Positions 21,618-33,773 of a DNA stretch of 64,000 nt are shown here, piece by piece. Origin of the DNA: Candidatus Enterousia sp. Its GTDB lineage: Bacteria; Pseudomonadota; Alphaproteobacteria; Rs-D84. The position numbers and the translations under genes are program-made. The DNA lies in NCBI GenBank assembly GCA_045613445.1, contig JAZLAZ010000012.1, positions 7,519 through 71,518 on the forward strand, read 5' to 3'. How positions within the stretch are numbered: position 1 is the stretch's first letter; every line of letters begins with the position of its first letter. The notes under the pieces are model-generated. The model searched no databases. It was given only the letters and a program-made list of their open reading frames with translations, and was not told the origin of the DNA.

Positions 21618-21663
21618 AAATCGGGAACCGTAGTGTACAGACGCTACATGAGATTCCCGATTT
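21618..21663. other. Conserved bulged hairpin element, copy 1
   Basis: AAA-TCGGGAACCGTAGTGTACAGACGCTACATGAGATTCCCGA-TTT; aligns without gaps to 33728..33773. Confidence 0.75.
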
Positions 21664-21686
21664 ATTTTTAGATGAATTATTATAAT

Positions 21687-22256
21687 TTATTTTGCGCGTT
21701 CTACATATTCTAATGTTTCAGTATTTACAACAATCTTTTCACCTTGTTCAATAAATAACGGAACTTGAACACGAACACCATTATCTAAAATAGCAGGTTT
21801 GCCACCACTGGATGAAACAGTCTGACCTTTTAATGCTGGTTCTGTTTCTTCAACAGTTGCAACAACTGTTTTTGGCAATGAAATCGATACTGGCTGACCT
21901 TCGACAAAGTTCGCTTTGACAACCATTTCTGGTGCCAAGAACTTCATTGATTCACCCAATGATTCAACAGGCATTGTAAACTGTTCATAATCAGATAAAT
22001 TCATAAAGAACGCATCTGTACCATCTGCATACAAATATTGACAGTCAAAATCTTCGACCATCAATTTTTCAACCTTGTCTTCTGCACGCCAACGGTCGCC
22101 ACCCTTGTTACCAGAATCAATATCGCGCAAGTCTGCCTGAACAAATGCACCGCCCTTGCCTGGTTTAACCTTGGTAATAGATGTAACAGAATAACGTTTA
22201 CCATTATGTGAAATCACCCAACCAACACGCATATCATTTGCAATATAAGATGCCAT
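21687..22256 (-). CDS. efp: Translation elongation factor P
   Basis: VKPGKGGAF, KPAILDNG, VQVPLFI, YVERAK. Confidence 0.96.
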   Translation of the reverse strand: MASYIANDMRVGWVISHNGKRYSVTSITKVKPGKGGAFVQADLRDIDSGNKGGDRWRAEDKVEKLMVEDFDCQYLYADGTDAFFMNLSDYEQFTMPVESLGESMKFLAPEMVVKANFVEGQPVSISLPKTVVATVEETEPALKGQTVSSSGGKPAILDNGVRVQVPLFIEQGEKIVVNTETLEYVERAK

Positions 22257-22323
22257 AATAAATACCCCTTGTTTTATTTAACTGTTTGATTATACGATTG
22301 AACAAATTCAACGCAAGAACTTT

Positions 22324-22866
22324 TTACTGTGTGTTACGTTTATGCGCCCAATATCTGTCGATACTGTCCATTATCAATTTATCTGCCGCCTCTCTATCTG
22401 CCCAACCAATAACCTTGGACCAAGCATGTGGCTGCAAATCTTTATAATGCTGAAAGAAATATTTTATTTTTGAACGCAAAATTGCTGGCAACTGTTCAAT
22501 AAATTCTGTATCTGTATAGAACGGGTCAACCTTGTCGCGTGGCACACAAATAATCTTTTCATCACCACCTGCCTGATCTTCCATCAACAGTGCACCAATG
22601 GGCCGAACCTCAATCAAAGTACCTGGGCGCAGTGGCGCATTACAAACAACAACACAATCCAATGGATCGCCATCATCACCCAATGTACCTGGAAAATACC
22701 CATAATTCGCAGGATACGCCATTGGCGCATGCAAAATTCTGTCGGCTTTTAACAGCCCTGTCTCCTTATCGATTTCATATTTTACATACCCACCTTCGGC
22801 CACCTCTATAATCGCATTCATTTTCTTTGGCGGCATTGTTCCTGGTACTATTTCATCTAAAACCAT
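22324..22866 (-). CDS. ppa: Inorganic pyrophosphatase (family I)
   Basis: KYEIDK, YPANYG, DGDPLD, DEKIIC, FFQHYK. Start placed at ATG 22866. Confidence 0.93.
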   Translation of the reverse strand: MVLDEIVPGTMPPKKMNAIIEVAEGGYVKYEIDKETGLLKADRILHAPMAYPANYGYFPGTLGDDGDPLDCVVVCNAPLRPGTLIEVRPIGALLMEDQAGGDEKIICVPRDKVDPFYTDTEFIEQLPAILRSKIKYFFQHYKDLQPHAWSKVIGWADREAADKLIMDSIDRYWAHKRNTQ

Positions 22867-22970
22867 ACTATTTCCTTTTTTGTTCACGGTTCATAAGGGT
22901 ATCACAAAAATTTTAATTTGCAATTATTGCCAAAATAAAAACCGCTGTCTGCGGTTTTTATTTTTTTGTT

Positions 22971-31029: not shown

Positions 31030-31166
31030 TTTATATTTCCATGGTAAATTTATTGATATCAAATATATAAGACAGCAATTTGAAAAATCAAGTCTATAAA
31101 TTATTATTAGGCAGAAATTCTTTGGGCTTGCGAAAAAATTAAAAATGTTATAATAATAGTGTTGCT

Positions 31167-33146
31167 ATGATAGAGAAAAACACAAAAACATACGATGCAT
31201 CAGACATTCAGGTTCTAGAAGGCCTAGAACCCGTTCGTTTACGCCCGGGCATGTACATTGGTGGCACAGACGAAAAAGCATGGCATCATTTACCGATTGA
31301 AATTATGGACAATTCTATTGACGAAGCCGTCGCTGGCTTTGCCAAAAAGATTACTGTGAATTTAATTGATTCCAAGACCATTGAAATTGCAGACGATGGT
31401 CGTGGAATTCCTGTGGATGAACATCCAAAATACCCTGGGAAATCCGCATTAGAAGTTATTTTAACAACCCTGCATTCTGGCGGAAAATTTAATAACAATG
31501 TTTATAAAACAAGTGGTGGATTACATGGTGTTGGATCTGCAGTTGTAAACGCCCTGTCGTCGGAAATGATTGTTGATATTGCCCGTGACGGATACAACTG
31601 GCATCAAACATTTTCACGCGGTCTGCCAACCAGCTCGATGCAGCGCATGGATGTGACAAAATCGCACGGAACCAAAATTAGATTTACAATTGACGATGAA
31701 ATATTTGGCACAAATGCTGTATTTAAACCAGTAAAAATCTATCGTATGGCACGTGCCAAGGCATTTTTATCCCGCGGGATAAAAGTTGATTGGCAATGTA
31801 ATCCTGAACTGCTCACCGAAGATATGAACATACCTGCAACCAAGACATTTTATTATCCAAATGGTGTTGCAGACTTCTTGGCAGAAAAAACAGATTCCAA
31901 ACCACGAATTTTACCACGCATTTTCAGTGGCAGTGTCGATTTCCCAGATGACAGTGGTCGCGTTGAATGGGCGCTAACATTTTTAACAGACGAAAATGGT
32001 GCTGCGTCTGATGACGGATTCTTTTCATCGTATTGCAACACAATTGCAACAATTGACGGCGGAACGCACGAAACAGGCTTTAAATCCGCAATAACCAAAG
32101 GAATAAAAGCATATGGTGAAAAAGTAAACAACAAATCTGCCGCAACAATTATTGGCGAAGATGTATTTGACTCTGTTGCTGCAATCGTATCTGTTTTTTA
32201 CAAAACACCTCAATTCTTGGGACAAACTAAAGAAAAATTATCCAACCCAGAAATTGCGCGTTATACAGAAAATGCACTGCGTGATCCATGGGAAATGTTC
32301 CTGGCATCTGACCCAAAAACAGCAAACGCATTACTTGATTTTGTTATAAATTTGGCAAATGCACGCATCAAAACAAAACAAGTCAAAGATGTTGCACGAA
32401 AAACACCAACAAAACGTATTCGTATGCCTGCAAAATTGGCAGATTGTTCAAAACATGGAATCGCTGGCACAGAATTATTTATTGTCGAAGGAGAATCAGC
32501 TGGTGGCACTGCAAAGCAAGCGCGAGACCGTGCAACCCAGGCCATTATGCCATTACGCGGGAAAGTATTGAATGTTATATCAAATTCGGACGAACGTTTT
32601 GGTGCAAACAAAGAATTAAACGAACTGATTGATATTATCGGGGCCGGTACTGCCAAGGATTGGAACGAAGATAAATTGCGTTATGAAAAAATTATTGTTA
32701 TGACTGATGCTGATGTTGACGGCAGCCATATTGCTTCATTATTGATGGCATTCTTTTATCAATACATGCCACAATTGATATACGGCGGTCATCTATATTT
32801 ATCTTGTCCACCATTGTATAAATTGACATGTGGTACAGAATCAATATATGTTGATAGTGATGAAGAACTGGAAAATCTAAAATCAACAAAGTACAAGAAC
32901 AAACGCATTGAAATCTCGCGATTCAAGGGTTTGGGTGAAATGATGCCAAATCAATTAAAAGAAACAACCATGTCACCAAAAACACGCAGATTGATTCGTG
33001 TTGAATTACCACCGCGCACAGATGAAGGGGCCGAAGATACGGAAAAAACACGTACAATTGTTTCTGAATTGATGGGCAAAAAACCAGAATTTAGATTCAA
33101 GTTCATAACAGAACACGCCCAATTTGTAAAAGATTTATTCGTATAA
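31167..33146 (+). CDS. parE: DNA topoisomerase IV subunit B
   Basis: GLEPVRLRPGMYIG, LHSGGKF, EGESAGG, PLRGK, MTDADVDG, RFKGLGEM; 659 aa, no GyrB insertion. Confidence 0.9.
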   Translation: MIEKNTKTYDASDIQVLEGLEPVRLRPGMYIGGTDEKAWHHLPIEIMDNSIDEAVAGFAKKITVNLIDSKTIEIADDGRGIPVDEHPKYPGKSALEVILTTLHSGGKFNNNVYKTSGGLHGVGSAVVNALSSEMIVDIARDGYNWHQTFSRGLPTSSMQRMDVTKSHGTKIRFTIDDEIFGTNAVFKPVKIYRMARAKAFLSRGIKVDWQCNPELLTEDMNIPATKTFYYPNGVADFLAEKTDSKPRILPRIFSGSVDFPDDSGRVEWALTFLTDENGAASDDGFFSSYCNTIATIDGGTHETGFKSAITKGIKAYGEKVNNKSAATIIGEDVFDSVAAIVSVFYKTPQFLGQTKEKLSNPEIARYTENALRDPWEMFLASDPKTANALLDFVINLANARIKTKQVKDVARKTPTKRIRMPAKLADCSKHGIAGTELFIVEGESAGGTAKQARDRATQAIMPLRGKVLNVISNSDERFGANKELNELIDIIGAGTAKDWNEDKLRYEKIIVMTDADVDGSHIASLLMAFFYQYMPQLIYGGHLYLSCPPLYKLTCGTESIYVDSDEELENLKSTKYKNKRIEISRFKGLGEMMPNQLKETTMSPKTRRLIRVELPPRTDEGAEDTEKTRTIVSELMGKKPEFRFKFITEHAQFVKDLFV

Positions 33147-33247
33147 AGAAAAACGGATATTACATCCGTTTTTTATTTTCTTATACTTGACAGCAATATT
33201 TTATGTACTATATTGTTCATTCGAATAAAAAAAATGGATATATAAAA

Positions 33248-33673
33248 ATGACCAGTAAAAAAAAGAAAAATACATATACCATTGCATGTAATGAAATGAT
33301 AGATATGGGCTTATTTGCATTCAGAAAATATACTCCGATGCCATTGATAACAGTAAATGGTCAAAAACAAGTAAGTAATGCTGGGTGGATAAAATCCAAA
33401 GAATTCCCAAATCCCCATGCAAACGAAATGGCAACCGCATATAAACGAACCATTGATATAATGGGTGCAAAGATTGCAACAACAATTATTGAATATTTAG
33501 ATAAAACAACAAATATGCCTGTTATTCAATTATATCCAAATGCCCAAACATATATATTTCCACAATACAAAACTGTCAATTATAAAGAACACTTAAATCA
33601 TGCAACACGTCGTGATTTACAACACGAAATAGAAAAACGTTTGGTAATATTAAATCATATAAAATCCAAATAA
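33248..33673 (+). CDS. Hypothetical protein
   Basis: ORF downstream of a TTGACA (33187) promoter-like element. The track's start at 33203 lies inside that promoter, so ATG 33248 is preferred. Confidence 0.65.
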   Translation: MTSKKKKNTYTIACNEMIDMGLFAFRKYTPMPLITVNGQKQVSNAGWIKSKEFPNPHANEMATAYKRTIDIMGAKIATTIIEYLDKTTNMPVIQLYPNAQTYIFPQYKTVNYKEHLNHATRRDLQHEIEKRLVILNHIKSK

Positions 33674-33727
33674 AAAATCCCATAACTAATGAATTTTTTA
33701 TAAAACATATATAATTCATATACTAAC

Positions 33728-33773
33728 AAACCCGACATCGCGATGTACAAGTATTACATAAGATGTCGGGTTT
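33728..33773. other. Conserved bulged hairpin element, copy 2
   Basis: AAA-CCCGACATCGCGATGTACAAGTATTACATAAGATGTCGGG-TTT; covaries with 21618..21663. Confidence 0.75.

Follow-up and report, generated by a model that had tools for sequence, protein, structure and literature searches.

Two 40-nt hairpins in a 64,000-nt stretch of a Candidatus Enterousia sp. genome (the window, C12:7519-71518 of genome G000; 961,597 bp, 27 contigs, 95% complete) make up the inner parts of two members of a palindromic repeat of ~107 nt, which apparently belongs to an undescribed family. We found 13 copies of this repeat in G000 and hundreds across the genus. The copies sit behind the stop codons of genes on the opposite strand, in one orientation with respect to replication, and carry a nearly invariant apex on stems that vary in sequence. 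We lean towards reading the family as a lineage-specific dispersed palindromic repeat, of the broad kind that includes repetitive extragenic palindromes (REPs, and their paired form, REPINs) and miniature inverted-repeat transposable elements (MITEs), that acts or spreads as a folded strand read at its tip.

Anatomy and conservation of the repeat

An earlier sequence-only reading of this DNA had pointed to the hairpins at 21621-21660 and 33731-33770. Both sequences read exactly as it quoted them, they align without gaps at 22/40 identities, both are flanked by AAA and TTT, and double changes that preserve pairing are present at positions 1/40, 3/38, 5/36, 6/35 and 13/24. The plus strand on which it had folded them is the better-folding strand, and folding there is strong compared with shuffled sequences (z -6.5 for copy 1 and z -7.8 for copy 2). 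The core that it had proposed, TGTACA-N5-TACATnAGAT, has exactly two matches in the window, where shuffles give 0.19 expected matches at two or fewer mismatches; the other terminators in the window are of the plain type, as it had said. Two of its claims have to be reworded. The 40-nt unit is a real hairpin, but it is only the inner part of a repeat nearly three times longer. The five double changes, which had been called compensatory, are real, but they separate two stem subfamilies that each occur at many loci, and are thus a subfamily difference and not substitutions that arose in place.

Read on the strand that carries the apex (the apex strand, which is the plus strand in the window), the repeat consists of a left arm AAATAAATTAGAATGATTT, an AGAT box, an A-rich run and GC-rich half-stem of ~18 nt, the apex, the complementary half-stem with a T-rich run, a second AGAT box and a right arm GAATTATTATAATTTATTT. 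The arms AAATAAATTAGAAT... and ...ATTATAATTTATTT pair with each other as terminal inverted repeats (helix 1 is 97% paired), and a second arm subfamily, AAATTAAAGATAATGGTAT ... ATGCCATTAGATTTAATTT, is also present. The AGAT boxes are direct repeats within this inverted structure; they are unpaired in the consensus fold, are invariant or nearly so among the 11 full copies of G000, and give a tandem G.A/A.G pair on the apex strand only. A further box like (T)GATTAGCGAA is found left of the arm in 5-6 of these 11 copies and also in related strains.

We built a covariance model (R1) from the 11 full G000 copies, and searches with R1 and nhmmer found 13 copies in this genome and further copies in relatives, which supports the miniature dispersed element that the sequence-only reading had listed as one option. 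In an alignment of 68 distinct copies from ~50 species, 96.3% of cells are paired as compared to 77% in shuffles and ~40% when the partner columns are slid, and 29 of the 40 pairs show double changes. Together with the conservation of the apex, these values support the joint constraint on structure and sequence that had been suggested from the first two copies. The apex consensus in Enterousia is GTAGTGTACA-N5/6-TACATGA. Conservation over 163 of 168 copies is 92-100% at 21 of the 22 fixed positions and 85% at the second base (T); base by base, the percentages are G99 T85 A99 G98 T97 G99 T99 A100 C100 A98 -N5/6- T100 A99 C100 A97 T98 G92 A100. The GTAG that opens the apex (G99 T85 A99 G98) adjoins a small TGTA-N7-TACA palindrome and stands at the tip of the 107-nt hairpin. 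The GC-rich stem is variable, and its classes are limited in number (about 10-15 subfamilies) and recur across loci and species; the stem class of copy 1 recurs at C27:38603, at C20:5628 and in other species.

The features of the two window copies and their neighbours are as follows.

20631-21581, plus strand: fba, class II fructose-bisphosphate aldolase (PF01116, E 4e-94), the convergent lagging-strand gene of copy 1
21578-21587, plus strand: tail box GTGATTAGTG (gene-sense CACTAATCAC), which supplies the TGA stop of fba
21588-21694, plus strand: copy 1, full element (R1 93.5 bits over model positions 1-107; nhmmer E 3.7e-23)
21608-21611, plus strand: left AGAT box of copy 1
21612-21629, plus strand: A-run and left half of the variable stem, AAAAAGAAATCGGGAACC, pairing with 21652-21669
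21630-21651, plus strand: apex of copy 1, GTAGTGTACAGACGCTACATGA, also found in other alphaproteobacterial families
21652-21669, plus strand: right half of the variable stem and T-run, GATTCCCGATTTATTTTT, placed by the fold
21670-21673, plus strand: right AGAT box of copy 1
21674-21694, plus strand: right AT-rich arm of copy 1, containing the complement of the efp stop (21687-21689)
21687-22256, minus strand: efp, the flush leading-strand gene of copy 1 (Pfam EFP_N, EFP and Elong-fact-P_C)
33203-33673, plus strand: orphan open reading frame (ORF) of 156 aa, accessory, on the distal side of copy 2, with no Pfam match
33702-33803 (C12:41220-41321), plus strand: copy 2, full length with degenerate arms (R1 50.9 bits, E 2.7e-9, model positions 1-107)
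33728-33773, plus strand: inner hairpin of copy 2, AAACCCGACATC ... GATGTCGGGTTT (-25.6 kcal/mol, z -7.8), with no U-tract after it
33740-33761, plus strand: apex of copy 2, GCGATGTACAAGTATTACATAA, diverged
33802-35430, minus strand: secretin (PF00263, E 9e-13), the flush leading-strand gene of copy 2

Copy 2 has lost both of its AGAT boxes. Of the convergent neighbours named earlier, fba, efp and the orphan ORF stand, but the gene that had been called pilN is the secretin. The sequence-only reading could place the hairpins in no known family, and neither could we: in an Rfam scan of the window at the gathering threshold only tRNAs pass, and at a permissive threshold the best match of the element scores 21 bits, where the gathering threshold is 90-100. 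The literature on Enterousia and Rs-D84 makes no mention of repeats, palindromes or terminators, and literature searches with sequence words from the element returned coincidental primers or oligos only.

Placement at gene ends and with respect to replication

The model matches 100 of 151 genomes of the order, mostly of the same genus, and ~85% of the same-genus genomes have at least one match; elsewhere in the class the full-length model finds almost nothing. Copies per genome range from 0 to at least 12, and one 370-kb contig of G044 holds 18. The contigs with matches come from metagenome-assembled genomes named 'Candidatus Enterousia sp.', 'Alphaproteobacteria bacterium' and 'uncultured Rickettsiales', obtained from the guts of yak, sheep, deer, buffalo, cattle, horse and humans.

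Three features that the sequence-only reading had not foreseen, namely anchoring to a stop codon on the other strand, replication polarity and position at the site of a terminator, emerged from these copies. With ORFs called mechanically, the right arm marks the end of an opposite-strand gene (the flush gene) in every copy outside the inner members of arrays: in 158 of 168 distinct full copies the stop of the antisense gene is -13 to +20 nt from the element end, and the remaining 10 are inner members of tandem arrays. Among the stops of these flush genes there are 151 TAA, 7 TAG and 0 TGA, as compared to a background of 70/10/20% (p ~7e-16), and in some of the genes the reading frame continues into the arm, whose own TAA terminates it. 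Flush genes are housekeeping or core genes scattered round the chromosome. On the distal side, a convergent gene is found in only 30% of copies, and an accessory gene lies there at 4 of 10 G000 loci, among them the 156-aa orphan ORF next to copy 2, which is missing from both element-free genomes that we compared (G004 and G138).

With respect to replication, the apex strand lies on the C-rich strand, that is, on lagging-strand sequence, in 13/13 G000 copies (contig skew +/-0.17) and in ~96% of copies in the family. A 240-kb skewed part of contig C2 of G044 carries 18 copies that are all on one strand, and there an element is associated with 15/144 leading-strand ORFs as compared to 0/83 lagging-strand ORFs (p=0.0013). 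Local GC skew was rejected as a pure replication signal, being confounded by a coding-strand effect of ~0.1; the test was repeated with this effect averaged out and on long contigs, and with the coding effect averaged out 83 loci have negative skew, 1 has positive skew and 2 are near zero. In G117, efp lies on the C-rich strand as judged by local skew and has a terminator-like hairpin of its own, and an element close by runs in the orientation opposite to efp, in line with the skew rule. Along G044:C2, the skew changes from about -0.2 to about 0 between 240 and 370 kb (L341-L347), a region with no repeat, and the first 240 kb hold all 18.

The two strands of the repeat also differ in how well they fold. 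The apex strand, which is antisense to the flush gene, folds as RNA on average 10.2 kcal/mol better than the gene-sense strand (61/64 copies), and with DNA parameters it folds 3.6 kcal/mol better (59/64 copies). Mispairs in the arms, when read on the apex strand, are 101 G.T as compared to 6 A.C, single arm columns alternate between G-C, G.U and A-U, and this excess of G.T opposes the local mutational bias, under which the apex strand is poor in G and T. In the variable stem, mispairs are 29 G.T and 47 A.C, with no strand bias. Because the variable stem is unbiased, the strand asymmetry is a property of the conserved parts of the repeat.

When we compared the same gene ends in relatives, we found that copies of the repeat occupy the spot where element-free relatives carry an ordinary bidirectional intrinsic terminator. 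The 3' end of efp is followed by the element in 23 of 30 relatives (22 flush and in the same orientation, often in arrays), and in the other 7 a plain GC hairpin with runs of A and T stands directly after the TAA. Behind the secretin gene, the element is present in 6 of the 10 closest relatives listed, with a decayed remnant in one more, and 15 of 18 more distant relatives have a plain hairpin with a T-run terminator. Like bidirectional intrinsic terminators, the repeat follows the stop directly and, in about a quarter of its copies, shows the order of A-run, GC stem and T-run; it differs from them in its conserved 22-nt apex, its arms and its AGAT boxes, and most copies have no U-tract. A strong U-tract on the sense transcript is present in 41/160 copies, and its frequency is 20/53 in convergent contexts as compared to 4/34 where a co-directional gene starts within 120 nt (p=0.013). 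Copy 1, with its A-run, GC stem and T-run, is terminator-like in both directions; copy 2 is not terminator-like and is without a U-tract. The copy between rpsM and rpsK, which lies inside an operon, likewise has no U-tract and is kept in 10/10 strains examined. We infer that the U-tract is found mainly where termination is needed. Promoters in the arms were considered and rejected: hexamers such as TATAAT and TAGAAT exist there, but by eye they are accompanied only by -35-like hexamers 13-14 nt away.

Turnover, mobility and alternative explanations

Comparison of strains gave a view of how the locus changes. Contigs with an identical EF-P have flanks that are 99.6-99.9% identical and differ in what lies between efp and fba: some have a single element of class GCGGTGCCGGCAAT, and others have class CAAATCGGAAATC, whose apex spacer differs, in one, two or at least three copies. 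Locus L015 is a chimera joined at the apex, L045 has the apex inverted between normal arms, and two strains have a 14-nt deletion inside the apex. Arrays also contain distal half-units, which comprise left arm, left stem, apex and a C-rich box that reads GCAAGGGG or GCAAGGAG in gene sense (TTCGCTAATC-GTGGGTGG is the equivalent in G000). We observed such half-units at L016 1-180, L017, L021 1150-1500, L012, L004 and G000 C20:5740-5830; their box is Shine-Dalgarno-like and lies 9-10 nt before an ATG-TAG or ATG-TAA in the apex, which could form a start-stop mini-ORF. In the strains, variable DNA starts just past the tail box. In L233 and L234, from ~2000, a different inverted-repeat element (GTCATTGCGAGCGAAGCG ... 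CTCGCAATGAC) lies just past the tail box downstream of the rpsK element, so that variable DNA joins the hairpin repeat on its distal side.

These strain data fit recombination between copies via their common arms and apex, and they do not prove recent transposition. The mechanism that we favor has three parts. First, a DNA repeat would be copied or recombined through its conserved arms and apex, and loci would turn over by recombination or gene conversion through the common arms; the apex, the AGAT boxes and the TAA-carrying AT-rich arms would be the features that the copying or recombining machinery recognizes, with the GC-rich stem free to vary as long as its halves pair. Second, the element would act or propagate as a folded single strand read at its tip, either as DNA at the fork or as antisense RNA, a proposal made because replication polarity is strict and one strand folds much better than the other. 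Third, the host would tolerate or use the element, whose inner hairpin may stand in for a terminator or 3'-end hairpin. The strain data lend indirect support to copying or recombination and to neither of the other parts; the recognizing factor and the form of the active strand are what we infer.

Several observations weigh against this reading. The population is mosaic, so that the differences between strains may reflect old alleles that homologous recombination has reshuffled, and not recent conversion, and a new insertion was not directly seen because no filled and empty pair in a near-identical background was caught among the strains compared. The Y1/RAYT transposase family (PF01797) was found in 1 of 101 genus genomes and not in G000, with a positive control that recovered it from 6 of 14 known genomes, and DDE_3 (PF13358) was found in 0/39 Enterousia genomes; these two families made up the transposase search in Enterousia. 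The high-copy genomes G059, G114 and G075 have exactly two matches each to PF00589, which are XerC/D. No consistent direct repeat flanks the 11 full G000 copies, although ends in A/T runs would hide a TA duplication, and no parent insertion sequence (IS) was seen at G000 copies. The low frequency of strong U-tracts means that most copies are not canonical terminators, and the better-folding strand is antisense to the flush gene, so that it would be transcribed from a convergent gene only at the 30% of copies that have one.

The search for a partner extended beyond transposases. Counts of tyrosine recombinases do not differ between zero-copy and high-copy genomes. At 4423-5445 on the minus strand, the window encodes a 340-aa integrase-like protein with Arm-DNA-binding and central domains, whose catalytic domain scores 18 bits against a cut-off of 27 and which may be degenerate or domesticated; the sequence-only reading had named it as a possible binding protein, and we found no link between it and the repeat. 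We also compared gene content with the element-free genomes G004 and G138, which were used whole and confirmed empty, and with 390 kb of the copy-rich G044. Of 970 G000 ORFs, 230 are missing from both G004 and G138, including those of two phage-like contigs; 11 of these 230 are present in the compared part of G044, and none of the 11 resembles a nucleic-acid enzyme. The phage-like contigs C6 (36 kb) and C19 (33.5 kb) have no counterpart in the two related genomes for 41/43 and 44/47 of their ORFs, have a higher GC content (0.405-0.415) with nearly all genes on one strand, and look like prophages, phage contigs or binned foreign DNA. A phage origin of the repeat was rejected: the apex pattern has five matches in IMG/VR, none in a hairpin context, which we attribute to chance.

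Because RAYT association, a foot-side GTAG and a transposase of the families searched were not found, and no target duplication could be made out at the A/T-rich ends, we file the repeat beside REP/REPIN and MITE, and inside neither. It resembles REPs, the mosaic elements built from them (BIMEs) and REPINs in being a short extragenic palindrome behind genes, often in tandem clusters and in coexisting subfamilies, with a GTAG beside a small palindrome and a capacity to form 3' hairpins or terminators, and REPs too are thought to be handled as folded single strands. It differs in that REPs and REPINs are associated with RAYT, whose gene REPs usually flank and which 100 of the 101 genus genomes lack; in that REPs have their GTAG on the foot side of a palindrome of 20-40 nt, whereas the repeat described here is conserved at its tip; and in number, since REPs number tens to hundreds of copies and this repeat is present in 0 to ~20 extragenic, dispersed copies per ~0.9-Mb genome. 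TAA-stop anchoring and ~96% replication polarity are features of this repeat and not of REPs. The ends of IS200/IS605 elements are another point of comparison, as they are hairpins read single-stranded with a strong fork-related orientation bias and insert beside a short specific sequence without duplication, with which TAA anchoring would fit. In contrast to these elements, the repeat has no TnpA, and its better-folding strand lies on the leading-strand template, whereas the active strand of IS200/IS605 is the lagging-strand template.

Alternatively, the repeat could be primarily a cis-acting RNA, either a polar terminator or degradation signal for antisense transcripts or a protein-bound hairpin in a 3' untranslated region (UTR), whose spread as a repeat is secondary. 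We consider this unlikely. The apex strand folds 10 kcal/mol better as RNA, the G.U-type pairs of the arms (101 vs 6) and the tandem G.A pair occur only on that strand, G-C, G-U and A-U alternate at the same arm columns, elements take the place of terminators, and U-tracts are enriched in convergent contexts. However, the strand with these properties has a convergent gene to transcribe it in fewer than a third of copies and no arm promoter with workable spacing, and the variable stem shows no strand bias. About 15% of the species in the genus do without the element and use plain terminators instead, copy number varies between strains, and half-unit arrays, chimeras, a flipped apex and apex deletions persist.

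The repeat could also be a folded-strand recombination site in the manner of integron attC or of Xer/dif, with exchange at the apex and capture of foreign genes on the distal side, which we regard as improbable. The functional strand of attC is complementary to the mRNA and in chromosomal integrons lies on the leading-strand template, and the repeat has this chromosomal-attC geometry, standing behind a gene with its better strand antisense and on the leading-strand template. Like attC sites (for example the VCR of Vibrio cholerae), which are imperfect palindromes of 60-140 nt flush behind a stop in one orientation, it keeps structure and leaves sequence free, and the apex-joined chimera L015, the inverted apex of L045, the variable DNA just past the tail box and the distal accessory genes at 4 of 10 G000 loci speak for such a site. 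It differs from attC in that IntI and R/L boxes are absent and the consensus contains no R''/R' core (RYYYAAC ... GTTRRRY); in attC the center is variable, whereas here it is conserved, and the flush genes are core genes scattered round the chromosome and not cassette arrays. We found no integron integrase and no tyrosine recombinase beyond the two PF00589 matches each of G059, G114 and G075. As for dif, a candidate site, AACGCGTATAA-TGTATA-TTATGTATAGT, lies at C27 ~68269 on the minus strand, with a small accessory ORF cluster beside it at 66.1-67.9 kb. By eye the apex matches the XerD arm of this site at 8/11 positions, a likeness that was rejected as it arises by chance in ~6% of cases over all offsets.

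Quite improbable, in our judgment, is an ordinary MITE of the IS630/Tc1 type that inserts at the TA of TAA. Terminal inverted repeats are present, and the adjoining stop is TAA or TAG and never TGA. In addition, G277 and G400, two genomes from other alphaproteobacterial lineages, have elements with the same apex that end in CTATAG...CTATAG-like repeats, and DDE_3 fragments were found in G277, G503 and G526. DDE_3 is, however, found neither in the 39 Enterousia genomes nor in the apex-bearing genomes G400, G530, G240, G305 and G255, no TA duplication is discernible at the AT-rich ends, and double-stranded cut-and-paste does not predict replication polarity. More broadly, the palindromic MITEs (Correia/NEMIS in Neisseria, ERIC in enterobacteria, RUP and IS630-type MITEs) are likewise imperfect palindromes of ~100-150 bp with terminal inverted repeats that are transcribed into 3' UTR hairpins and vary in presence between strains, and some of the apex-bearing relatives in other Alphaproteobacteria look like IS630-type MITEs. 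They differ from the Enterousia repeat, for which no parent IS or DDE transposase was discerned and which combines variable ends with an invariant center, the reverse of a transposase-bound MITE, and with a fixed orientation to gene and replication. Finally, the idea that the two window hairpins are unrelated plain terminators alike by chance, for which the U-tract of copy 1 and the convergent neighbours of both hairpins would speak, is already refuted by two exact core matches where shuffles predict 0.19 looser ones, and by the 13 copies in G000 and hundreds in relatives that share arms and apex.

The apex in other Alphaproteobacteria

A new finding is that the apex occurs in other Alphaproteobacteria, with several copies in each of at least eight genomes. 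We searched 401 alphaproteobacterial genomes for the bare pattern AGTGTACA-N5/6-TACATGA, and the following genomes have several copies.

G530, family f27: 23 apex copies
G400, family f27: 21 apex copies
G240, family f46: 13 apex copies
G277, family f83: 5 apex copies
G255, family f61: 4 apex copies
G305, family f111: 4 apex copies

Five further genomes in this search have a single copy, and a second sample gave G688 with 5 copies; over both samples, six genomes have a single copy. The bare apex was found in 0 of ~285 genomes of other Pseudomonadota classes, and a control with the reversed pattern gave 1 match in ~800 genomes. We fetched 26 of the alphaproteobacterial loci, and in 26/26 the apex tips a hairpin of 116-218 nt with 28-67 enclosing pairs. 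The arms of these hairpins are lineage-specific, and invariance is limited to the 15 apex bases that the pattern specifies. In 23/26 loci the apex strand is C-rich, in 19/26 it is the more stable strand, and in 12/26 an antisense gene ends at the right end of the hairpin, with TAA or TAG only. An Rfam search with the apex-bearing elements of other lineages returned nothing.

We also observed, in G240 (L358, L369, L376 and L383) and G255 (L361, L371 and L378), a GACGCAGYAG ~40 nt 3' of the apex. The same bases stand before the apex in several lineages, such as in G255 L361 and in G437 (GACGC-AGTGTACA). The sequence thus forms a direct repeat within a palindrome, much as the AGAT boxes do in Enterousia.

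As a tentative extension of the reading favored above, the 22-nt apex (G)TAGTGTACA-N5/6-TACATGA could be a functional module in its own right that is specific to Alphaproteobacteria, a putative site at which some factor binds or cuts the tip of a folded single strand. It would have spread on unrelated backbones and in Enterousia would have become a replication-polar tag of TAA gene ends that displaces terminators. The usual definition of REPs and MITEs rests on their ends and a known transposase, whereas here the tip is fixed, the stems are free, no known mobilizing enzyme was found, and copies obey three strict rules of placement, being tied to a TAA stop, to a leading-strand gene and to one orientation. 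Should a dedicated factor read the tip, the repeat would represent a new way to mark gene ends in extremely compact genomes and a concrete case of selfish repeats taking over the job of terminators, and the factor would be a new hairpin-recognizing protein or nuclease and a possible tool. The presence of the apex in distant alphaproteobacterial lineages makes the search for this partner tractable by phylogenetic profiling.

A separate observation concerns the neighbour of copy 1. A published survey of Rs-D84 reports that these genomes lack fructose-bisphosphate aldolase (PMC12306168). In the window, the class II enzyme is encoded by fba next to efp, and this gene is conserved in related strains.

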